Below are positions 1,592-36,296 of a stretch of 39,300 nt of DNA, piece after piece. Every line of letters starts with the position of its first letter. Positions within the stretch are counted from its first letter, which is position 1. Below the pieces are notes generated by a model, which did no database searches, was not told where the DNA came from, and was given only the letters and a program-made list of their open reading frames with translations. The DNA is taken from UHGV virus genome UHGV-0123126, one strand, 5' to 3'. This DNA is from a virus. Position numbers and translations under genes: made by a program.

Positions 1592-1630
1592 GATAGGTAG
1601 ATACTAACTTATATAAATTTTACTGTAAAC

Positions 1631-3545: not shown

Positions 3546-3561
3546 ATAAGTAAGTACTTAT
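3546..3561. promoter_or_regulatory. Palindrome ATAAGTA-AG-TACTTAT upstream of the SPFH operon
   Basis: Member of a recurring ATAAGTA..TACTTAT palindrome family (also 15746..15759, 23317..23338, 26840..26859). Confidence 0.4.
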
Positions 3562-3572
3562 ATATTTTCAAG

Positions 3573-8246: not shown

Positions 8247-8363
8247 GTGTTTCTCCTTGTTGTGATTTGGCCGATGGCGCTATGCGCGTTGGGCTTTCGT
8301 TCATTCGTGGCTCTTTCGAGCTGTTAAATGATAGATCAGTACTTACTTATTATCTATCAAAAA

Positions 8364-15682: not shown

Positions 15683-15745
15683 GCGCTTTTCCTTTGTTCT
15701 CTAATGAGCGTTCAAGTTCTTATATAAATATACCATTAACTATGG

Positions 15746-15759
15746 TAAGTAGTTACTTA
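15746..15759. promoter_or_regulatory. Palindrome TAAGTA-GT-TACTTA within conserved GGTAAGTAGTTACTTATC, between the CobT-like and CobS-like genes
   Basis: Near-identical GGTAGGTAGTTACTTACTTATC occurs at 31411..31430 upstream of another minus-strand gene. Confidence 0.4.
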
Positions 15760-15777
15760 TCATTAAGGCTGTTTTAA

Positions 15778-17886
15778 TTACTTCAAAATGATACGAGATA
15801 GTTCAGTAACTACAGATGAACCAAGACTATCAACACTAGTTACCAGGGCATGATTTGCGTAAAATCTCTCCGGTGCATCAGTCATGATGCCAATTGCCAT
15901 CAAATCAATGTCAGTCTGCGTTTCAATTTGCTTCGTAACCGAACGCAAATGGGCGTCAAAACCTCTCCCAACAGCCCACGGCGCGCCATCACTCAGAACA
16001 AGCATGATCTTCCTGTCCTCCAAGCGACCGGAAAATAACGATGCAAGGCTGGCTATGCTTTCACCATCCACGTTATTAAGAAGTGGGAATGTGTAGCCTA
16101 CGCACCCCATACGTGAGCGAACTTCGCGAGAATTTGCTTTTTCATTCCAATTTTTGATGATAGGTAGCATTAAAGATTCAAAGCGAGAGAACTCATATTT
16201 GATAGCCTTAAGTTCTCCTGCTGCCATATGACTGCCAAATGTAGTGAAGCCGGTGATAATGTTGGGAACATTTATTCGATCAAGTGCATCGGCGATGGTA
16301 TATGCACTTGCAAGAGCTAGTTTTATCGTTTCGCCACTCATTGAACCCGATAAATCAATCACTTGTTGAACACAGGCGTTAACGGCTTTAGATTCTTCTT
16401 TTTTACGAAACACGCGATCATCATTCATTGTTAATCTGTAGATACTTGAACCATGAATGCGCCCCCGACGCTGGCCAGGTATAAACTGAACTCTGTTTCT
16501 GCTTGCTATTGCACGTTCCAGGTCTTTTGCCAGCGTCGACGAAACACCTGACGAAAGGTGCTTTTCAATATATTTGTCGAAGAGCTGGTTGCCTTCAGGA
16601 ACGATGCGATAACGGCTGATTGGATATCCACCTAAATCAATATCGGAGAATGTTTTAATAAGCCGTTTGATATGGGCTTCTGCCTGATCAATCGAGCCGA
16701 TGAAGTCGTATGAGCGATTGTATGGCCTGTATTCGCTTTTCGAGCTTTCTGTTAACTCGCTTTTAATCGTTTCGGATAGCGCATCTTCTGTCATGCCTCC
16801 GACTTCATCTTCCATGCTATCCAACTCCTCTAAAGCCTCTTCCAGACTCATTTTTGACGGAGTTGGAATGTCTGAAGAGCCGTCTTCTGTCGATTTTCTT
16901 TTTTCGTGGTCAGTGGTAAATGATTCTGACGCCGCGTTATCAGAAGCACCAGAATCTGATACCTCTTTATCATTTTCTGTATCATCGAATATTGTTTCTG
17001 ATGATTCAGAATTATCTGAATCATCACTGTCGTTATTATCATGTTTGTACTTACTGTGTGATTCTGATTTGATAGATTTGTGATTATCTAACGCTGAGGG
17101 TGTCTCATGATCTTCGTTGTCTTCATTGTTTTCTCCAGAGGCATCCGTCTGGTCAGCGTCTGAAGGATCGGAAGTTTTTCCCGGAGCTGACTCCTTACCT
17201 TTGCTTTCACTTTCAGTGTCTTTGAGGATCTTAGCTATGGTCGCAGCCACCTTTACACAATCCTCGGTGCAAGACATGTTACGCACGGCCACATCGATAC
17301 CATGTTCTTTTAATAATGAAATTGGTTTCTCAATGACAGGCCAATATTCATCCATGAAATCTACGAACGGTGCTTGGCCATCCCAGGCTCTTACAACCGG
17401 ACAGAGAAAGAAGTTTAGAAAAAGCGCGCGCTGATCTTTGCCACAATAAGCAATAGCCTCTGAAGCCTTTGTTTTAAAGACTTTTTCGATTATAAGGCGC
17501 TGAGTTGCCATCAGATTACGTCTTGTTCCGTTAAAGACCTGACCCATTTTTCGCTCGATGAACACGTCTTCTAAGGCATTCCATAGCGACCAGGAAGGAA
17601 CGCGTCCTTTTTCTCTCATTTTGTTGGACACACGAATATCGGTAAACAAAATGTGAGCAACCTCATGATCGAGAAATCCGCGCACAGCATTCATCAATGC
17701 CGGTGTTGCGTTATCCGGGATTGATGGGATGTTTACGAGAATTGGCTCTCCATCATCGTTATAGCGTACATAAGCGTCGTCCCCTCGTTCTGCAACAGGG
17801 ATGTTTTTACCTGAAAGGAGAGCGACTACTCGTTTTACACTGTCACGGAAGTCCTGAACCTCTTTGATGGAACGTTTTTTAGACAT
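15778..17886 (-). CDS. cobT: CobT-like von Willebrand factor A (vWA) domain protein with long acidic low-complexity linker
   Basis: 702 aa; MIDAS-like DLSGSMSGE; Ser/Asp/Glu-rich segment around residues 220-370; directly upstream of the AAA+ partner. Confidence 0.8.
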   Translation of the reverse strand: MSKKRSIKEVQDFRDSVKRVVALLSGKNIPVAERGDDAYVRYNDDGEPILVNIPSIPDNATPALMNAVRGFLDHEVAHILFTDIRVSNKMREKGRVPSWSLWNALEDVFIERKMGQVFNGTRRNLMATQRLIIEKVFKTKASEAIAYCGKDQRALFLNFFLCPVVRAWDGQAPFVDFMDEYWPVIEKPISLLKEHGIDVAVRNMSCTEDCVKVAATIAKILKDTESESKGKESAPGKTSDPSDADQTDASGENNEDNEDHETPSALDNHKSIKSESHSKYKHDNNDSDDSDNSESSETIFDDTENDKEVSDSGASDNAASESFTTDHEKRKSTEDGSSDIPTPSKMSLEEALEELDSMEDEVGGMTEDALSETIKSELTESSKSEYRPYNRSYDFIGSIDQAEAHIKRLIKTFSDIDLGGYPISRYRIVPEGNQLFDKYIEKHLSSGVSSTLAKDLERAIASRNRVQFIPGQRRGRIHGSSIYRLTMNDDRVFRKKEESKAVNACVQQVIDLSGSMSGETIKLALASAYTIADALDRINVPNIITGFTTFGSHMAAGELKAIKYEFSRFESLMLPIIKNWNEKANSREVRSRMGCVGYTFPLLNNVDGESIASLASLFSGRLEDRKIMLVLSDGAPWAVGRGFDAHLRSVTKQIETQTDIDLMAIGIMTDAPERFYANHALVTSVDSLGSSVVTELSRIILK

Positions 17887-17984
17887 GGCTAATCCTTTGT
17901 TATGAAAACAAATTATTTACTAGTGTGTTTAATGTAGCACTGCGCGAACAGGGAACTAAGCCATTCGCGCAGGGAGAAGAGGGG

Positions 17985-18197
17985 TTAACAGATTCTGACG
18001 GCTAAAGACCCGGAGCCGGTATTGAGAAGCGTGAAGCGTTTGTTGTTAAGTTCGAATATAAAGCCAGTTGTGTCATTCACACCAACCTGAATCTGCTCAT
18101 TCGGTAGATCGGTGAGGATGTCAGCTACACACTCATCAGCTAATTTCTGTACGTGTCCGATCTCAAGAGCGATTAGGCTGGAAATAGTGGTGTTCAT
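17985..18197 (-). CDS. Hypothetical small protein, first gene of the cobT-cobS-dnaE operon
   Basis: 70-aa ORF preceded by TATAAGT-type A/T-rich motif. Confidence 0.45.
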   Translation of the reverse strand: MNTTISSLIALEIGHVQKLADECVADILTDLPNEQIQVGVNDTTGFIFELNNKRFTLLNTGSGSLAVRIC

Positions 18198-18374
18198 TCA
18201 ATCAATCCATTCTAACTTATACTATGGTAAGGAATACTACTAAAATCTATATCAATACTGAATACATTCATATCATATGCAAGTTGATTTTCTTACCTGT
18301 TTTGGGCTAATTTTTCTCCGTGCAATGGCCTTTAACCGGTCTTTTAAGTGCCTATCGAAAAAAATGATAATAGC

Positions 18375-18417
18375 TTTACAACCCTAACCTTTGATGTAAT
18401 ATCGGTAAGCACTTACC
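18375..18417 (+). promoter_or_regulatory. Sigma70-type promoter (TTTACA, 16-bp spacer, TAATAT) followed by palindrome GGTAAGCACTTACC
   Basis: Hexamers at 18375..18380 and 18397..18402; 14-bp palindrome at 18404..18417; divergent intergenic region. Confidence 0.45.
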
Positions 18418-18448
18418 AGAGAGAATTGAACGCGCAAAGGTTGTAACC

Positions 18449-18835
18449 ATGTCTGATAACAAGATTGAATTTATAGAAAGTCGCTACGCTGCTTTTATCG
18501 CAGGGTTGATTGAATCCTCACCTATGAGCCAGGCCCAGATAGCCAAAACAATTGGGTATAAAAACGCCAACAACCTTTCTTTAATTAAAAGCGGCAAAAT
18601 TCCTTTGCCTATCGATAAGGTTCGTCCGCTGGCGCTGGCACTGGGCATTGAGCCAAGTCGTCTTATGATGATGGTGCTGGAAGAACGCCAACCCGAACTC
18701 GCAGCATTTTTATACAAAGAAGGCACTGCTCCTCTTAACGAGGACGAAAAACAGGTTCTTGCTGCATATAACGAGCGATTCGGTAAAGAGAAAGGCGCAT
18801 CACAAAAGGTTGTTGAGGCCATAAAGTCTCTATGA
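18449..18835 (+). CDS. Helix-turn-helix (XRE-like) transcriptional regulator
   Basis: 128 aa; HTH segment SQAQIAKTIGYKNANNLSLIKSGK; divergent from the replication operon, convergent with the recombinase. Confidence 0.7.
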   Translation: MSDNKIEFIESRYAAFIAGLIESSPMSQAQIAKTIGYKNANNLSLIKSGKIPLPIDKVRPLALALGIEPSRLMMMVLEERQPELAAFLYKEGTAPLNEDEKQVLAAYNERFGKEKGASQKVVEAIKSL

Positions 18836-19933
18836 AAAATTTACACGAATAAGCTCTGTTGATAGACGATCTCCCTTAAATTTGTGGTCAATTTCGTCTA
18901 AATCCGGTTGCTCTACGATTGATGCGATGTACGTCGAGAAACTTTCTAAGGCGTCTCGCATCTCGTCCATATAATCGTGCCGGTCGTAGACCCGATCTAT
19001 CCCCTCAAGACTGTGGTTCATGATTTTACGTGATACCTCCTGGCTTATGCCTAATGCTGGGAAGTAACTACGCGCAGTACGGCGCAAATCTCGGGGTGTA
19101 AATGGCTCAAGCTCCATCAGTTCTGGTCGTTCCAGAATACGACGTAATGCCTGGGCTATTGCCACTTTAGACATAGGAAGGTCTTTCCCGATTTTTTTAT
19201 TCGAAGGCACGAGCCACTGGCTGTCTTTACCATATTCGAACAACTCTTCAATACAAGTGCGCATTAATGAGCTTAAAGGCAGAGAATGCTCACGGGCAGA
19301 TTTGTTCCTCTTGCCTTGATTCCAAACCCCACGCTTAAGATTGAACTCACTTTTTTTAGCCCGCAGTACTTCGTCAGGTCGTCTTGCGGATACAAGACAT
19401 AGCCTGGCCGCCCATTTTGTACCAGCGCACACATTGAAGTAGTCCCATATATTCCAGAACACCCATACCTCTGCGTCGGTCAGCTTCCGCTCGCGAGGTG
19501 TGGGCTTTGCGCCACCGGCAACTTTGTTAAGTGACATATCGTTTAACGGTGACACGTCTATCATCCCCTGGAAGGCGCACCAGCTAAGGAACTGCTTCAT
19601 CAGAGAGAAAACGCGGCGGCCCATAACAATTTTGCCATCCAGTATTAGTGGGTTGACCAGTTGGTTCACCATGAACCTATTAATGTCACTTACTTTTACA
19701 TCGGCAATGTGCGGCAAAACATGTATCAAAATACAATGAACAGCGATCTCTGGCCGACGTCTGGTTATCAGCAGAGATAAGCGAGTGAATAACATGAATG
19801 CGTCCGAGAATCTCATGTCATTGCTGACCTGGGAGATCATAACGGCCTGCATTTGAGATGCTCTTTCGAGATACTCTATCGCCTCTTTTGAGGTGTTCTC
19901 CGCAGCGCGTGCTCTGTCAAAGCTATTTTTCAT
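18830..19933 (-). CDS. Tyrosine recombinase / integrase family protein
   Basis: C-terminal catalytic region RDLRRTARSYF ... MNHSLEGIDRVYDRHDY (R..H..Y pattern); 367 aa. Confidence 0.8.
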   Translation of the reverse strand: MKNSFDRARAAENTSKEAIEYLERASQMQAVMISQVSNDMRFSDAFMLFTRLSLLITRRRPEIAVHCILIHVLPHIADVKVSDINRFMVNQLVNPLILDGKIVMGRRVFSLMKQFLSWCAFQGMIDVSPLNDMSLNKVAGGAKPTPRERKLTDAEVWVFWNIWDYFNVCAGTKWAARLCLVSARRPDEVLRAKKSEFNLKRGVWNQGKRNKSAREHSLPLSSLMRTCIEELFEYGKDSQWLVPSNKKIGKDLPMSKVAIAQALRRILERPELMELEPFTPRDLRRTARSYFPALGISQEVSRKIMNHSLEGIDRVYDRHDYMDEMRDALESFSTYIASIVEQPDLDEIDHKFKGDRLSTELIRVNFS

Positions 19934-19959
19934 ATGACAATCACCGAGTTACGCCGATG

Positions 19960-19979
19960 CACTGTATAAGTAAACAGTA
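19960..19979. promoter_or_regulatory. LexA-box-like site CACTGTATAAGTAAACAGTA (CTGT-N8-ACAG)
   Basis: Fits CTGT-N8-ACAG with A/T-rich spacer; about 30 bp upstream of the recombinase start. Confidence 0.4.
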
Positions 19980-20031
19980 TATTAGGCATAGATTCTTATA
20001 GGATCAAGAGTAAAAGTAACTCATTTTCAGC

Positions 20032-20064
20032 AATGATTCCATACATAGTAGGTATGGAATCATT
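20032..20064. repeat. Perfect 13-bp inverted repeat AATGATTCCATAC-(7 bp)-GTATGGAATCATT; lox/dif-like candidate core site
   Basis: 13-bp arms with 7-bp spacer, about 100 bp upstream of the tyrosine recombinase gene. Confidence 0.45.
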
Positions 20065-20143
20065 TTGACGTTGTTTTTTGAATTTTAAGGGAAACGGGAG
20101 TGAGTTTGGTGGGAATAAAAACGGCTCCTGTGAGCCGTTAAAA

Positions 20144-20389: not shown

Positions 20390-20563
20390 TGTTACCTCAT
20401 AGAATTGATATGCAACTTTACTTACAAAGAAGATAGGTGTGTGCATACTTATCTTTACAGTCTGCATTATAAAGCTATTAAAGCCTCGATCAATCTATTA
20501 ATTAAGGCATTGTTTGGTTAACATTAGCCTAATATTTTATAGTTAGTAGAGTGAAATACATAC

Positions 20564-21826
20564 ATGCCTTTTTTAATTTTCATTATTATACTACTGCTCA
20601 CCGTCATTTTTTGGGATTGGGTTGTTTTAAATGGTCAAACTGTTGGAACATTGGCTACAGCATTTGCTTTTATAGCAACAGCATGGAATGCCTACGAAGC
20701 GAGAAAAAGTGCAAAAGCAGCTTTTTCAGCCCTTCAATTAACAACTGAATCATTGTTCGAAATGCGAAAGAGTGCATTTAAACAATGGTTTGATTCCTTA
20801 TTAAATCAACATGATGAGTTATGTCTTCTTGCAAAACAAATTATCGATAAACACAAAATTAATTTAAACAGCGATGAGTTACATAGACTATATTATCCAT
20901 TGGTAAGACAGCATGAGGTAATACAGTATGTGAAGCATATTATTAATATATTTGAGTATGTGGATGGTTCATTTTATATTGATGGGGAATGTCTCAAGGA
21001 AAAAAGAGCGTATGTGTCACAATTAATTTTTAAAATCCCACCTCAGATGAAGTTGATCATTGCTATCTTTGGATTAAAAATCGATTATTGTGAACATATT
21101 AATTCGGAAAAACTGTGTTGTTTATTGAATAAATATGATTTTTTCAATGATGAAATATTTTTTGATGATGCTTATTCAAATATGCCTTATCTGGATACAT
21201 TCATAAACCTTAGATTCAACAAAATATTCAAATCTCGAATGATAAATTATTTTGATAATATCATTAAAAGTTATTATGTTCCATCGGACGTTAAAAGGGA
21301 CTGGATGTTTCGACACCCAAAGCTCGTACCGTCGGTTCTTATGAATTATAAAACTCCTTGTTCTCCTATAATTAATGATTACTTTGAGAAGTTGCCTTTA
21401 CATGTAAGAAACTACTTTGAGGAACTACTTAAAACCGCGAATGATAGAGTTACTCATTTTGACGTTTACATCCCACGCCTTATTGGTTGTTCAATCGTGC
21501 AACATTACGAAGATGTGCCTTCCGAAAAAAACAGGTTAAATGACAGGAATGATGTAATAGCTATGGCTGAAGATTACATCGAGAAAAGAAAATCTAATCA
21601 ACTAGATTACATACTTGAAGATATATACTTTAAGAGTGACGAAGATATAATCCCAGGCCACCATTTAATTGTGGCATTTGATGACTATGAATATAAATTA
21701 GCACTAATTAAGATAAATGAAAATAAAGATAACGATAATCTTTTAAATCGAATTTATACTGAATCCAGTAGCATGGTTAATGAATATAAGCGCGAAATAT
21801 TAAAATTGGGCGACTATGCAAAGTAA
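20564..21826 (+). CDS. AT-rich membrane-anchored protein of unknown function (two N-terminal TM helices, about 370-aa cytoplasmic domain); candidate abortive-infection/defence protein
   Basis: 420-aa ORF with GC content clearly lower than flanking DNA; only long plus-strand gene here; own terminator. Confidence 0.65.
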   Translation: MPFLIFIIILLLTVIFWDWVVLNGQTVGTLATAFAFIATAWNAYEARKSAKAAFSALQLTTESLFEMRKSAFKQWFDSLLNQHDELCLLAKQIIDKHKINLNSDELHRLYYPLVRQHEVIQYVKHIINIFEYVDGSFYIDGECLKEKRAYVSQLIFKIPPQMKLIIAIFGLKIDYCEHINSEKLCCLLNKYDFFNDEIFFDDAYSNMPYLDTFINLRFNKIFKSRMINYFDNIIKSYYVPSDVKRDWMFRHPKLVPSVLMNYKTPCSPIINDYFEKLPLHVRNYFEELLKTANDRVTHFDVYIPRLIGCSIVQHYEDVPSEKNRLNDRNDVIAMAEDYIEKRKSNQLDYILEDIYFKSDEDIIPGHHLIVAFDDYEYKLALIKINENKDNDNLLNRIYTESSSMVNEYKREILKLGDYAK

Positions 21827-22018: not shown

Positions 22019-22105
22019 TGGCGGAGAGTAATGGAATCGAACCATCATCGTTTGCACAATGGGACGGTTTTCAAGACCGCTTGAGCACCATGCTCCCTAC
22101 TCTCC
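22019..22105 (-). tRNA. tRNA-Ser (anticodon UGA), class II with long variable arm, CCA encoded
   Basis: Hand-folded: acceptor GGAGAGT/ACTCTCC, anticodon loop CTTGAAA, T-loop TTCGATT, discriminator G + CCA. Confidence 0.6.
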
Positions 22106-22322
22106 AATTGTTGTGGTTACCGGTACTGATCTCCGGCTTAGCGACCCCGGCTACTGACTGCATTGCAGTGTGTGAACTCGCCTCGTGTGTCGCTGGGGCA
22201 TTTCTTTCCGCGCATCAGTCTGCGCATCAACCACAACGAAAAGAGCACTGTATGACGTTTGCACGGACTTACGCTTAAAACAGGGCAGTCTCGGCGGTTT
22301 TCAATGCTCTTTCCTGTTGTGT

Positions 22323-22398
22323 TGGTGCCGGTTAACGGACTCGAACCGCTGACATCCTGCTTACAAGGCAGGCGCTCTACCAACTGAGCTAAACCGGC
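22323..22398 (-). tRNA. tRNA-Thr (anticodon UGU), CCA encoded
   Basis: Hand-folded: acceptor GCCGGTT/AACCGGC, D-arm GCTC..GAGC, anticodon stem CCTGC/GCAGG with loop CTTGTAA, T-loop TTCGAGT. Confidence 0.8.
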
Positions 22399-22402
22399 AA
22401 TT

Positions 22403-22489
22403 TGGTGGGGAGTGATGGAGTCGAACCACCCGAGTCGCCATGACAGTAGATTTACAGTCTACACCGCTACCTCTACGGACTAACTCCCC
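22403..22489 (-). tRNA. tRNA-Tyr (anticodon GUA), long variable arm, CCA encoded
   Basis: Hand-folded: acceptor GGGGAGT/ACTCCCC, anticodon stem GTAGA/TCTAC with loop CTGTAAA, T-loop TTCGACT. Confidence 0.8.
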
Positions 22490-22494
22490 TAAAT

Positions 22495-22569
22495 TGGCGA
22501 TGGTGGGTGGATTCGAACCACCGACCAGTTGGTTAACAGCCAACTGCTCTACCGCTGAGCTACACCATC
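22495..22569 (-). tRNA. tRNA-Asn (anticodon GUU), CCA encoded
   Basis: Hand-folded: acceptor GATGGTG/CACCATC, anticodon stem GTTGG/CCAAC with loop CTGTTAA, T-arm GGTGG-TTCGAAT-CCACC. Confidence 0.8.
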
Positions 22570-23316: not shown

Positions 23317-23338
23317 GATAAGTAAGTAAATACTTATC
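23317..23338. promoter_or_regulatory. Palindrome GATAAGTA-AGTAAA-TACTTATC, 3' of the small-gene operon
   Basis: Perfect 8-bp arms; same ATAAGTA/TACTTAT family as 3546, 15746, 26840. Confidence 0.45.
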
Positions 23339-25948: not shown

Positions 25949-26015
25949 AATTACCGCCAGAAATAATCCTGTGCTTACCTATCATTATTTGCGTAAAAAA
26001 CGACACACAGAGAGC

Positions 26016-26839: not shown

Positions 26840-26859
26840 ATAAGTAATCATCTACTTAT
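26840..26859. promoter_or_regulatory. Palindrome ATAAGTA-ATCATC-TACTTAT in the divergent region between the 260-aa ORF and the Sel1 gene
   Basis: Perfect 7-bp arms; motif family member. Confidence 0.4.
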
Positions 26860-26979: not shown

Positions 26980-28017
26980 ATGAAACATTTCAAACCAATA
27001 TCTTTCTTTATGTTGTCGCTATTACTTGTTTCGGGGAGTGCACATGCCTATGAAATACAAAAGCTGATCGATGCGGCAAAAGCAGGCGACGTTGAGTCAC
27101 AGAGTGCTTTAGGTATCGACTATATGAAAGGTATTCATGGTGTCGAAAAAAACTACGATGAAGCCAGAAAATGGCTTGAACTGGCGACTTCTAAGGGGAA
27201 CAAAGAAGCGTTTAATGCTCTAGGTATAATGTATGCCCTTGGGTATGGGGTTGATAAAAATTTCAAAAAGGCTGAGGAACTCTTTAAGAAAGCTGGTGAT
27301 GCAGCTGGAGGCAACTCTTATCACAATCTGGGTGTTATTTATCATAAAGGACTTGCGGGTAAGAAAGACCAAAAACTTTCCCTGAAATATCACAAACTTG
27401 CAGTAGAGGCTGGCGACCCTGAATCTGCGTCATATCTAGGACAGTTATATTATGTTGGCGCAGGCGTGCCAAAAAGCTACAAAAAGGCAATAGAGTATTA
27501 TAAAAAAGGAATCGAACTAGGCAGTGCATCTGCATTGGCGAATCTTGGCATTATGTATGAGTATGGTGAAGGGGTTAAAAAAGATTATAAAAAAGCAGCT
27601 GAGCTTTATCAGGCAGCTTGCGATAAAGAAGATAAAAATGGCTGTGATTACATTGCAGAACTAAAAGAAAGCGGTAAATACCAACCATCAGCAGCAAGAT
27701 CTAAAGCAAAATCCTCCACTCAGCGACTTATTGCTAAATCCATTGATAAAGGCGTTAACGCAACATTTACCTGGCAGGGTGATGATGCCACCTTCACCGC
27801 TAATGATGGCAAAATTGACTGCACTTTCCTAAAGGATTTTTCAGAGAAAGGAGGCAATCTGGCTACCTCGTTTGTTTGCACCGATAACGTTCAAATCATC
27901 CTGAAGCAATTCAGAGATACCAAGAATGCCTACCTCGCGGTAATGACTGACAACTTCAACACAGAAGTTAAATCATTTTCGGTCAATGTTTACGTGACTA
28001 ATACTGGTTCAAACTAG
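26980..28017 (+). CDS. Secreted Sel1-like repeat (TPR-like) protein with N-terminal signal peptide
   Basis: Signal peptide ending SGSAHA; repeated about 36-aa units with A-x-x-G-[VI]-x-Y and K-A-x-E-[LW]-[YF]-K-K-A spacing. Confidence 0.8.
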   Translation: MKHFKPISFFMLSLLLVSGSAHAYEIQKLIDAAKAGDVESQSALGIDYMKGIHGVEKNYDEARKWLELATSKGNKEAFNALGIMYALGYGVDKNFKKAEELFKKAGDAAGGNSYHNLGVIYHKGLAGKKDQKLSLKYHKLAVEAGDPESASYLGQLYYVGAGVPKSYKKAIEYYKKGIELGSASALANLGIMYEYGEGVKKDYKKAAELYQAACDKEDKNGCDYIAELKESGKYQPSAARSKAKSSTQRLIAKSIDKGVNATFTWQGDDATFTANDGKIDCTFLKDFSEKGGNLATSFVCTDNVQIILKQFRDTKNAYLAVMTDNFNTEVKSFSVNVYVTNTGSN

Positions 28018-29190
28018 TGCTGCAATGCCTTTCACCTTGCTTAAGAGTTCAAGCTGTCGTGAATAAGGTTTTGCGCAATAGTAGGCTTTGATAATCTGCC
28101 CCGGTGTCGCATCGCCGGGGTCGAGTCCTTCCTCGCCCAAACACGCAACTTTGACATTAAGGCCAATACTTGTGAGTCGCCTAGCTGCGGCCATAGTGTT
28201 GCGTATAGCTTGCTTTTCACTATCCCACATCATGATCACATTACGTAATCCACGCGCCTTGAGCGTCAGGAACGCGCCCAGCTGATCTTCTGCATCCTGA
28301 GTGGTGTTGCCAGATAGATGCATCCCGAACGTTCCTATTGGTTCCACGTAATCACGTAATGTTTCTTCGTCAAAAATAGCTCGTTTGACCCCCATAACAT
28401 CGAACGCCCCCTCACAGACAACTACCGTCTGTTTGCCGACTGCATTATGGCCGTTGTAGAGAAACTTACCTGAAGCTGGAAGCTGCACAGGAAAGAGGTA
28501 GCGACGTTCTGCTGTACCGGTAATGTCTCGTCCCTGAAATGTCTTCATTACCCCATCCAGATCGTAAACCGGTATCAGTATTCGCATATCGAATATCTGT
28601 CCTTTAACCTGATCTGTATACGGATCTACATAGGCGTGCTTGCCTTCGACGCAGTATCGTAGGTCAAAATACTTTGCCATTTCAGGCGATATGTTTCGTT
28701 CAACCAGATAGTCTGGAAGACGACCATCTATAGGAAGCTCGTAATGACGAGGGAGTGCAACTGGCCCCTCTAACTCGACTGTGCTTGCAAGCACTAGCTC
28801 TTCTTTCTTTGGTGCCCACCCCTGGGAAAGAAGGGCGTTCTGCACATATTCCTCGAACTGTCGTCGTGATTTGCCGCTGTAGTGCTTGAGGAAGACCAGC
28901 TTATTGAACTGAATCTCTTCGGGATGATCACCAGCGAAGCATTTACCGACGCCACTGGTCAGATTGAAATATACCTTCCAGTTGGAGCTGCCACATACCG
29001 GACACTCCTTGATATTCACTTCACGACCGCGAGTACTCACGCCTCCACGTCGATAAACGATACCTTCAGTATCCAACCATTGTTCAAAATCTAATTCGGT
29101 AATTAGCTCTTTCAGCTCGCTCACGATAATTCCACTTTTAACAGGCAATATTGTGACCAACCTAAATGTTGATATAACATAAAGGCTCAT
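28009..29190 (-). CDS. DNA primase (zinc-finger plus TOPRIM); start uncertain (track ORF begins at GTG 29262)
   Basis: Zinc ribbon CPVCGSSNW...KCFAG; TOPRIM-like VVVCEGAFDVMGV; ATG at 29188..29190 avoids the hairpin at 29241..29258. Confidence 0.75.
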   Translation of the reverse strand: MSLYVISTFRLVTILPVKSGIIVSELKELITELDFEQWLDTEGIVYRRGGVSTRGREVNIKECPVCGSSNWKVYFNLTSGVGKCFAGDHPEEIQFNKLVFLKHYSGKSRRQFEEYVQNALLSQGWAPKKEELVLASTVELEGPVALPRHYELPIDGRLPDYLVERNISPEMAKYFDLRYCVEGKHAYVDPYTDQVKGQIFDMRILIPVYDLDGVMKTFQGRDITGTAERRYLFPVQLPASGKFLYNGHNAVGKQTVVVCEGAFDVMGVKRAIFDEETLRDYVEPIGTFGMHLSGNTTQDAEDQLGAFLTLKARGLRNVIMMWDSEKQAIRNTMAAARRLTSIGLNVKVACLGEEGLDPGDATPGQIIKAYYCAKPYSRQLELLSKVKGIAALV

Positions 29191-29271
29191 GTGTTTTTCT
29201 TTTGTGGTTTGGCAAAAGAAAAGTTGTTTCACCAATGAATCAAGCGTGGAGGTGTTCTCCACGCTTATTTT

Positions 29272-31396: not shown

Positions 31397-31678
31397 GTGG
31401 CTCACCTGGTAGGTAGTTACTTACTTATCACAATGAACGGATGATAGCGACTGGTGGCAGTTTTTGGAAGTGGAAACGGAAGGGAGTTGTTCTGGTGGTG
31501 TCTTTTAAAAGACCTGCTTCCGTATATATTTAATAAGTTACTTATTATTTATATATACAGAAGCAGGCATAACTTGTCGTCTTAGACGCCCAGAAGCTCT
31601 ACACTTTGAGCCTGTTAAATTGATTAAAAACTTATGTGTAAAATAGAACGCATTAGTCAGTAGCTAAGAGATGCAATA

Positions 31679-36094: not shown

Positions 36095-36296
36095 GTTTTC
36101 CTCCATGAAAAGTCAAATCGGGATGGCGGATTTATATCACACTTCTCCTTTCAATTATAGGTATATACTTACCTATCTATGTATATACCGTTTAACGGCT
36201 GTTCAAATTCGTATCTAGTAACTCACTAATATATCCCTATGATTGCGGCTGTGAGATCGCATTTTAAACCTCACAGCCATATAAATAATGTCTAAA

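Follow-up and report, generated by a model that had tools for sequence, protein, structure and literature searches.

A conserved palindrome at the promoter of a candidate lysogeny repressor and the dispersed box family of an SSU5-type phage-plasmid

Introduction

The C1 repressor of the phage-plasmid P1 is a 283-residue protein, is not Xre-like, and acts at asymmetric 17-bp operators dispersed around the phage-plasmid genome. The gp71 protein of mycobacteriophage L5 binds stoperators, which are asymmetric 13-bp sites in one orientation relative to transcription, and blocks elongation. KorB of plasmid RK2 belongs to the ParB family and has a dozen or more identical dispersed palindromes. Here, we describe the 251-bp gap between a gene for a helix-turn-helix (HTH) protein and a leftward 70-residue open reading frame (ORF) at positions 18198-18448 of a 39,300-nucleotide stretch of the virus genome UHGV-0123126, referred to as the window. 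The 1.2 kb around this control region are 99.8% identical to Escherichia phage Cyrano (pLF82, E. coli LF82). The palindrome at the promoter of the HTH gene is the core of a symmetric box of about 20 bp, ATAGGTAAGTACTTACCTAT, which is present in about 30 copies across the element, and this element-wide box family is the main new result. On balance, we favour the reading that the gap is the promoter-operator of a lysogeny repressor, and that binding of the boxes by the HTH protein silences the lytic genes and represses transcription from its own promoter.

The proposed system shares with P1 the plasmid prophage, a single repressor at many scattered operators that include the one of its own gene, and, as suggested below, induction by an antirepressor route rather than by repressor self-cleavage. 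It differs from P1 in having symmetric boxes of about 20 bp and a 128-residue Xre-type candidate binder, the two proteins being set apart here by their descriptions. As in L5, about 30 sites are positioned mostly in short intergenic gaps of early and late blocks, in an arrangement that would silence the genome; unlike stoperators, the boxes are palindromic with symmetric flanks, and several of them overlap promoter-like hexamers. The Xre/Cro-CI-type fold and a palindromic operator overlapping the repressor's own promoter are features of lambda cI with PRM and OR3, and of 434 and P22, and, as with OR3, this operator is weaker than the sites at the lytic genes. In contrast to lambda, there is no S24 domain, no tripartite OR, and no Cro-like HTH partner, and the lytic operators are dispersed. 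The palindromes are spread over the plasmid at varying distances from the promoters that they would repress, as in the KorB regulon of IncP plasmid RK2, but the ParB-like genes of the present element are not expressed in lysogens. Coliphage 186 with Tum, N15 with AntC, and Gifsy phages also combine an uncleavable repressor with a LexA box on a separate promoter of the immunity region, and the induction of N15 by the antirepressor AntC is under LexA control (PMC11652158); here, however, the LexA-controlled promoter is that of an integrase gene and is directed towards the repressor gene. A 2024 review of phage-plasmids (PMC11652158) contains nothing on lysis-lysogeny control in the SSU5-like group. 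In the searchable literature, which the 1998 pMT1 genome papers lie outside, we found no description of the box sequence, of intergenic palindromes in SSU5, pHCM2, or pMT1, or of this control region.

Results

A conserved promoter and palindrome precede the HTH gene

The promoter that faces the HTH gene, P(HTH), consists of TTTACA (18375-18380) and TAATAT (18397-18402) on the plus strand, as read in the initial annotation, and its -10 hexamer lies 47 nt upstream of the HTH start codon at 18449. The palindrome GGTAAGCACTTACC starts 2 nt past the -10 hexamer, has the arms GGTAAG and CTTACC on either side of a central CA, and occurs nowhere else in the window as a perfect copy. The start of the HTH transcript, predicted from the -10 hexamer at approximately 18409-18411, falls inside the palindrome, and an AAAGG Shine-Dalgarno-like stretch separates the palindrome from the ATG. 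P(HTH) fits the sigma-70 consensus at nine of the 12 positions, and 1.3 kb of the region contain two such sites, compared with 2.9 in shuffled sequences. The promoter match alone is therefore not above chance, and it is conservation that makes P(HTH) real.

The intergenic region of 12 relatives was aligned, and mean pairwise identities were calculated from nine representatives. The -35 and -10 regions, CTTTACAA and TGTAATATC, both have an identity of 1.0, the palindrome 0.93, and the spacer 0.72, whereas values in the diverged flanks are 0.46 for the 5' untranslated region, 0.34 for the central part of the gap, and 0.61 for the initial codons of the HTH gene. The only variation of the palindrome in relatives is G or A at the first base and C or T at the centre. 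A genuine promoter whose transcription start is covered by a protein-binding site would be expected to show this combination of invariant hexamers and a near-invariant palindrome within diverged flanks. The palindrome overlaps the core promoter and start and is conserved together with the promoter, which is the layout of an autoregulated promoter-operator. The comparison supports a conserved sigma-70-type promoter driving the gene of the 128-residue HTH protein, and the promoter and palindrome seen in the initial annotation are in all likelihood real and functional.

Upstream of the -35 region, the conserved element TGCCTATCGAAA with an A-rich tract is possibly an UP element of P(HTH). In pHCM2-type relatives, this element is overlapped by the half-box ATAGATAAGTCTTTAC, which scores 5-9 bits in seven of the 12 aligned relatives and is missing in the lineage of the window. 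The gap contains only one strong palindrome, plus a weak half-box in some relatives. No LexA box was seen by inspection of positions 18198-18448, and there was no Rfam match within positions 17800-19000.

The palindrome belongs to a dispersed box family

An unbiased search of the whole Cyrano genome with the 14-mer, allowing up to two mismatches, gave 11 hits, seven of them intergenic in a genome that is 87% coding. The matches have further flanking bases in common, which extend the family consensus to ATAGGTAAG-NN-CTTACCTAT; the core at P(HTH) agrees with the consensus at 13 of 14 positions. When the 20-mer was searched with up to five mismatches in 18 positions, 23 of the 25 Cyrano hits were intergenic (binomial p estimated at ~1e-18). 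A matrix built from these hits identifies 28 Cyrano sites of at least 12 bits, of which 26 are intergenic. The same scan finds 18 positions of at least 12 bits in the window, compared with 0.28 in Markov simulations, and a pattern search finds 11 distinct sites, compared with 0.19 in dinucleotide shuffles. Plasmid pMT1 of Y. pestis (NC_004835) contains 20 boxes of at least 12 bits versus 0.1 expected, and has also retained the HTH gene and its operator. Many intergenic copies ahead of lytic genes are therefore found in Cyrano, in the window, in pMT1, and, as a sequence variant, in an Acinetobacter element. A purely local operator does not agree with this distribution.

Almost all boxes are located in short intergenic gaps upstream of lytic-direction genes, typically at a distance of 2-160 nt. 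The genes behind the Cyrano boxes belong to all classes and include those for portal, tail, tail-fibre, and holin proteins, SSB, RNR, ThyX, Dam, CobS, and a ParB-like protein. According to a tally made from the published Cyrano expression tables, the genes just behind boxes are almost all at the lysogen background. Relatives have boxes at the same positions, for example in the gap between the CobT and CobS genes and at one site within the CobT gene. The former position was conserved in the ten relatives scanned, except for two Klebsiella loci that end short of the site. The latter, which may serve as a promoter or operator within the gene, falls into an acidic low-complexity linker of the CobT-like protein and is kept in the relatives from E. 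coli, Shigella, Salmonella, Enterobacter, Citrobacter, and Klebsiella as well as in pHCM2 and pMT1.

The half-sites and flanks of the boxes are equally conserved on both sides, and no clear directional signal was found in the flanks within 30 nt on either side. The site and its flanks are two-fold symmetric, without the fixed orientation relative to transcription of an asymmetric operator. The equal conservation of both arms speaks for a DNA-binding protein that acts as a dimer, and not for an RNA hairpin or a promoter element with a direction. Consensus sequences of Fur, TyrR, and other host factors were considered for the box, and none of them fits.

The HTH protein is the candidate binder

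The protein encoded behind P(HTH) matches Pfam HTH_19 in residues 25-75 (E = 7.8e-4, 19.7 bits) and PHROG 8, "transcriptional regulator" (E = 1.3e-11). Its AlphaFold model has a predicted local distance difference test (pLDDT) score of 75 overall and of 83-92 across residues 11-70, and Foldseek matched the model to the N-terminal domain of lambda cI, C.AhdI, and Stl with probabilities of 0.97-1.0 and E-values above 0.04. Only generic Xre folds were returned. The domain match, the PHROG match, and the predicted fold confirm that the regulator faced by the promoter is a 128-residue Xre/Cro-CI-type HTH protein. The C-terminal part of the model consists of three short helices, and the S24 peptidase domain with a Ser-Lys dyad that marks self-cleaving repressors of the LexA/lambda-CI type gave no match in Pfam or PHROGs. 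A word-indexed homolog search with the protein found phage-plasmid copies only, at identities of at least 55%, and an exhaustive search added 887 more distant small HTH proteins.

The Cyrano ortholog CYRAN_45 was annotated "putative repressor" and taken as the reference master repressor by the Cyrano authors. Its expression is 96 versus a local background of 9.8 in the published Cyrano RNA sequencing (RNA-seq) of overnight LB lysogen cultures. It is the sole clearly expressed HTH regulator in lysogens: CYRAN_114 has a value of 18, CYRAN_37 and CYRAN_123 of approximately 7, and the ParB-like CYRAN_119 and CYRAN_120 are at or under the background (5 and 9.5). A terminator-like hairpin inside the HTH gene (18609-18593) was rejected as a chance occurrence, as synonymous changes break it in relatives.

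Box variants accompany changes of the recognition helix

The recognition helix NANNLSLIKSGK is nearly unchanged among enterobacterial relatives, which match the window protein at 56-97%, and in these elements the inner part of the box is AGTACT. An Enterobacter lineage made up of pCP102 and seven IMG/VR contigs encodes an HTH protein of 50% identity with the helix NANNLSNIKTGR. The corresponding box keeps the outer arms ATA(A/G)GTA...TACCTAT, and its inner six bases are changed from AGTACT to GYTARC. The HTH protein of the Acinetobacter element pLUH6011-1 is 48% identical over 92 aligned residues, has the helix RPNVLSMIKSGE, and is accompanied by the dispersed box AGTCAGTACTGACT, which occurs at 11 sites with up to three mismatches. 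Ten of these sites are intergenic in DNA that is 91% coding, and two are in the gap between the element's own HTH gene and small ORF; one of the two was placed by eye between TTCAAA and TATATA upstream of the HTH gene. In all three lineages, the box variant of the lineage is also found near the HTH gene. If the protein docks as that of 434 does, changes at helix positions 0-3 would correspond to the outer bases in Acinetobacter and those at position 6 to the inner bases in pCP102, which is suggestive. The two box types found in plasmids of one host genus, Enterobacter, argue against a host factor as the binder.

A module of HTH gene, small ORF, CobT-like, AAA+, and DnaE genes is common to Acinetobacter phage-plasmids, as noted from positions 19373-19973 of A. 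baumannii pLUH6011-1. The right flank of the Acinetobacter box, GAT(T/C)(A/T)TTT, is conserved on one side only, an asymmetry that was not seen in the enterobacterial boxes.

The integrase promoter carries a LexA box

E. coli LF82 induces the SOS response inside macrophages. Downstream of the HTH gene, a tyrosine integrase gene is transcribed convergently, and the box CTGT-N8-ACAG, CTGTATAAGTAAACAG, is positioned over its core promoter, P(int), where binding of LexA is predicted. The LexA box is present in 11 of the 12 enterobacterial relatives (E. coli, Shigella, Salmonella, Enterobacter, pHCM2, pMT1, and Klebsiella) and is degenerate in Citrobacter. Cyrano has only two strong intergenic LexA boxes, at P(int) and upstream of the UmuD-like CYRAN_98, and both genes are up by approximately 5 log2 units in macrophages according to the published data. 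The integrase mRNA rises from 5.6 to 10.3 log2 units in macrophage-grown LF82, which is approximately 26-fold, and the Cyrano authors observed a 39-fold increase in virions with ciprofloxacin. The LexA box over the core promoter and the macrophage rise together are the features of an SOS promoter.

No conserved terminator was found between the integrase and HTH genes in the sequences compared. In the published data, the integrase gene, HTH region, and CYRAN_46, the ortholog of the 70-residue ORF, are at similar levels after 6 h in macrophages, after which expression drops at a hairpin beyond CYRAN_46. This profile is compatible with the hypothesis that a single SOS-induced leftward transcript, antisense to the repressor gene, would reach the 70-residue ORF.

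A canonical intrinsic terminator on the minus strand, AACGGCTCACAGGAGCCGTT followed by TTTATT, is located at positions 20120-20139 between the glutaredoxin gene and a lox-like site, and would isolate the LexA-controlled integrase unit from upstream transcription in the lytic direction. The lox-like site (20032-20064) is a 13-7-13 inverted repeat, AATGATTCCATAC / ATAGTAG / GTATGGAATCATT, approximately 100 bp upstream of the integrase gene. Enterobacterial relatives have conserved its left arm, and a distant Enterobacter lineage has the palindrome in full. The lox/dif-type appearance of the repeat suggests that the "integrase" is a Cre-like resolvase of plasmid multimers.

The leftward 70-residue gene

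The protein encoded by the 70-residue ORF (CYRAN_46, phrog_2627) has no HTH match, and the pair of genes therefore does not form a divergent cI-cro switch. Its AlphaFold model is poor and uninformative (pLDDT 46), with one helix and beta strands. CYRAN_46 mRNA increases from 4.3 to 10.8 log2 units in macrophage-grown bacteria in the published Cyrano data, or about 90-fold, which makes it the most strongly macrophage-induced gene on the lytic strand. The 70-residue ORF is a possible candidate for an antirepressor. CobT-like mRNA rises from approximately 3 to 5.9 log2 units in macrophages and DnaE mRNA is at approximately 4.5, with CobT, CobS, and DnaE near the background.

A GC-rich hairpin without a U-tract separates the 70-residue ORF from the CobT-like gene. 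It is found in every lineage, with compensatory changes of its stem (CUGCGCGAA/UUCGCGCAG versus CUGUACGAACAG/CUGUUCGUACAG), and the four hairpin-bearing intergenic stretches of approximately 100-120 nt have shuffle z-scores of -2.9 to -4.4. In the published Cyrano RNA-seq, expression falls between CYRAN_46 and CYRAN_47, at the position of the hairpin, which is probably a transcript end.

The initial annotation had also pointed to TATAAGT-type motifs on the opposite strand ahead of the leftward genes. At 18221-18215 the motif does occur, but a -35 partner is missing, and conservation of the sequence does not extend to pHCM2, pMT1, Klebsiella, or other relatives. No qualifying leftward sigma-70 promoter was found on the minus strand in the lineage of the window. 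A partly conserved block upstream of the 70-residue gene contains the extended -10 element TGATACAAT in pHCM2/pMT1-type relatives, which is degenerate in the window (TGATATAGAT). The same block has an inverted repeat, TGTAT-N9-ATACA, in pHCM2-type relatives and TATAT...ATACA in the window, the spacing of which is wrong for LexA.

Identity of the element and other features

SSU5-like phage-plasmids were defined by a plasmid of approximately 100-115 kb, a siphovirus structural module, an IncFIB RepA, DnaE, a CobS/CobT-like pair, and a tRNA cluster. Three further E. coli phage-plasmid records of 108-109 kb are 91-98% identical over the same 1.2 kb as Cyrano, and the locus is found at lower identity in 793 plasmids, mostly non-mobilizable and of approximately 100-115 kb. 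Every typed plasmid among the 793 has the replicon type IncFIB, and the carriers include S. Typhi pHCM2, Y. pestis pMT1, and many Klebsiella, Enterobacter, and Citrobacter plasmids. The gene order is constant in every relative fetched: a CobS-like AAA+ ATPase, a CobT-like vWA protein, the 70-residue ORF, a gap of approximately 250 bp, the HTH gene of 126-129 residues, and the convergent tyrosine integrase gene overlapping the 3' end of the HTH gene. The order is also common to the Acinetobacter phage-plasmid pLUH6011-1, and the window additionally encodes DnaE, a tRNA cluster, and glutaredoxin. Because of the identity to Cyrano, the shared gene order, and the DnaE, tRNA, and glutaredoxin genes, the window is, judged by its sequence, part of an SSU5/pHCM2/pMT1-type phage-plasmid; the IncFIB plasmid relatives of approximately 100-115 kb agree with the definition. 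From the group table of PMC11652158, we infer that the element belongs to the pSLy3 group of the SSU5 community.

The positions of all features are given in Table 1. The tRNA cluster at positions 22019-22569 of the minus strand contains four tRNAs (Asn, Tyr, Thr, and Ser), and the tRNA region is well represented in the lysogen RNA-seq of Cyrano (CYRAN_40, 151). Two segments differ from Cyrano and look like variable cargo or insertions. At 20564-21826, a plus-strand ORF of 420 residues without a Pfam match appears to stand in place of CYRAN_43, which is the highest-expressed gene of Cyrano in the published RNA-seq. At 26980-29262, there is an extra pair of ORFs (345 residues, plus strand; 417 residues, minus strand) at the site of the Cyrano primase gene. 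In pMT1 of Y. pestis (NC_004835), the caf1 F1-capsule operon directly adjoins the integrase and lox-like region, which fits this spot being a cargo-insertion locus.

Table 1. Features of the window around the control region and positions of dispersed boxes
Feature	Position	Strand	Evidence and remarks
-35 region of P(HTH), CTTTACAA	18374..18381	+	Consensus scan; invariant in 12/12 aligned relatives
-10 region of P(HTH), TGTAATATC	18395..18403	+	Invariant in all aligned relatives; 16-nt spacer
Candidate operator box ATCGGTAAGCACTTACCAGA	18401..18420		Core GGTAAGCACTTACC at 18404-18417; family matrix (12.7 bits), family pattern search
Conserved upstream element TGCCTATCGAAA and A-rich tract	18347..18373	+	Identity 0.64 and 0.54
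HTH gene, ortholog of CYRAN_45 ("putative repressor")	18449..18835	+	Domain, PHROG, and fold matches; expressed in Cyrano lysogens
70-residue ORF (CYRAN_46)	17985..18197	-	phrog_2627, function unassigned; not HTH
GC-rich hairpin between 70-residue ORF and CobT-like gene	17940..17972	-	Conserved; without U-tract
Partly conserved block upstream of 70-residue gene	18233..18279	-	Identity 0.49
Tyrosine integrase/recombinase gene	18830..19933	-	Convergent with HTH gene; 3' ends overlap by 6 bp
P(int)	19962..20007	-	-35 TTGATC 20007-20002, 17-nt spacer, -10 TAATAT 19984-19979; conserved, hexamers checked by eye in sequences of relatives
LexA box CTGTATAAGTAAACAG, perfect	19962-19977	- (promoter)	Over predicted integrase start (~19972); motif search, conservation
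Dispersed box	1593..1612		22.9 bits; matrix and pattern search
Dispersed box	3546..3565		26.9 bits; Cyrano counterpart between TTGAAA and TATCAT, upstream of CYRAN_56
Dispersed box upstream of gp32-like SSB gene	8331..8350		29.2 bits; matrix and pattern search
Dispersed box between CobT-like and CobS-like genes	15741..15760		14.6 bits; matrix and pattern search
Box inside CobT-like coding sequence	17072..17091		14.6 bits; matrix
Dispersed box upstream of glutaredoxin gene	20433..20452		22.9 bits; matrix and pattern search
Strongest box of the window	23318..23337		32.1 bits; ~750 nt upstream of tRNA cluster
Dispersed box	25963..25982		13.4 bits; matrix
Dispersed box	26840..26859		23.3 bits; matrix and pattern search
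Dispersed box	31409..31428		18.8 bits; matrix and pattern search
Dispersed box	31533..31552		17.5 bits; matrix
Dispersed box upstream of holin-like gene	36157..36176		26.7 bits; matrix and pattern search

Discussion

The distribution of the boxes and the expression of the HTH gene in lysogens suggest that a single small repressor silences the whole phage. Dimers of the HTH protein would bind the dispersed boxes and, by occupying the strong full-length copies, would prevent expression of the lytic transcription units as long as the element is a plasmid prophage. The copy at the transcription start of P(HTH), which is weaker and has the core only, would fill at a higher repressor level and block RNA polymerase, and this negative autoregulation would limit repressor synthesis by the logic of lambda OR3. 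A self-cleaving domain is missing from the HTH protein, and the SOS signal must therefore act through another component. The best candidate for the entry of the SOS signal is the LexA-controlled P(int), the transcript of which would meet the repressor gene head-on and may extend to the 70-residue ORF, the possible antirepressor.

Several observations weigh against the promoter-operator of a repressor. The HTH_19 match is under the curated cut-off of 30.2 bits and the fold matches are generic, and the start of the HTH transcript is known from prediction only. The copy at P(HTH) is without the outer ATA/TAT arms and scores 12.7 bits in the window and 8-17 bits in relatives, as compared with 20-32 bits for most lytic boxes. 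The covariation of helix and box comes from three lineages in which everything else has diverged too. CYRAN_34, CYRAN_81, and the tRNA region are expressed in lysogens despite adjoining boxes. Sigma-70 hexamers are found at scattered offsets around the boxes with no constant position, and only about five of 27 boxes combine a usable -35 hexamer with TAT(C/G)AT at box positions 18-23; the boxes at Cyrano 57446 and 3527, for example, lie exactly between TTGAAA and TAT(C/G)AT.

As there is no fixed sigma-70 offset, many boxes could be activator-dependent promoters rather than operators. The boxes would then be bound by another dimeric regulator of the phage, such as a lytic activator like Lpa of P1 or a Cro-like or ParB/KorB-like protein, and would serve as factor-dependent lytic promoters, with the copy at P(HTH) shutting the repressor gene off in lytic growth. 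We give this explanation a limited but appreciable chance. It accounts for the many boxes that have neither a -35 nor a -10 hexamer recognisable at a fixed offset, for boxes that precede early-type and late-type genes alike, for those that end just 2-12 nt ahead of a start codon, and for the atypical, core-only copy at the HTH gene, and the element encodes further regulators that could take the role (CYRAN_37, 114, 123, and 119/120). However, these alternatives are at or near the lysogen background, which is compatible with an activator but leaves lysogenic silencing without an explanation, and box and recognition helix of the HTH protein have changed together. Furthermore, the Acinetobacter box near the HTH gene is placed between hexamers as at lytic sites, so that an activator would turn the HTH gene on there and off here, whereas a repressor would have the same outcome in both.

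The other explanations keep the palindrome local. The initial annotation took the region for a divergent switch through which the HTH protein would control a leftward replication operon, and with it copy number or induction. The layout is indeed divergent, and DnaE is encoded 3.7 kb leftward on the same strand, but the description as a replication operon is only loosely right, as the 70-residue, CobT-like vWA, and CobS/MoxR-like AAA+ ATPase genes come first. The 70-residue gene is regulated separately and is set apart from the CobT-like gene by the conserved hairpin and the drop in expression, one box belongs to CobS and a further one is located within the CobT gene, the cited leftward motif is not conserved, and in Cyrano the plasmid initiator RepA is encoded at a distance of approximately 18 kb from the repressor gene. 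Between the palindrome and the start of the 70-residue gene there are 204 nt, and the palindrome sits on the start site of the HTH transcript. A local switch is thus improbable. The repressor-operator idea itself is retained, in that the footprint of conservation reveals a promoter with an overlapping palindromic operator ahead of a gene expressed in Cyrano lysogens. The earlier reading is partly supported, right in kind but wrong in target, as control of a replication operon or of copy number is not supported. It is also improbable that the palindrome is a private autoregulatory operator with a coincidental likeness to the dispersed boxes. The missing outer arms and modest matrix score would fit a private site, but the core follows the family consensus closely, the family was itself recovered with this core and has a strong intergenic enrichment, and two distant lineages likewise keep their own box variant near the HTH gene. 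We consider it more improbable still that the palindrome acts at the RNA level, by folding into a stem-loop at the 5' end of the HTH mRNA or as a structural roadblock or terminator. The palindrome can form a 5-bp hairpin, but the fold of positions 18404-18470, which start with the palindrome, is no stabler than that of shuffled sequence (z = +0.67), there is no Rfam match, the predicted transcription start is inside the palindrome, and the half-sites vary independently across family members so that pairing is not preserved.

The interpretation of the region as a repressor promoter-operator can be extended, although with considerable doubt, to all phage-plasmids of the SSU5 supergroup, including pMT1, pHCM2, and the resistance-carrying Klebsiella, E. 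coli, Enterobacter, and Acinetobacter elements. They would all be silenced by one uncleavable Xre repressor at about 30 boxes, which would co-evolve with the recognition helix and define immunity groups, and an antisense transcript from the LexA-controlled P(int) would deliver the 70-residue antirepressor.

SSU5-like phage-plasmids are common in Enterobacterales, carry antibiotic-resistance genes, and include pMT1 of plague and pHCM2 of typhoid bacteria. P1 and L5 provide precedents for the basic logic of a repressor that acts at dispersed operators. For the SSU5-like group, the present analysis provides an operator sequence, a candidate regulon of about 30 sites, and a candidate entry point for the SOS signal, and the lineage-specific box variants could predict immunity or incompatibility groups.

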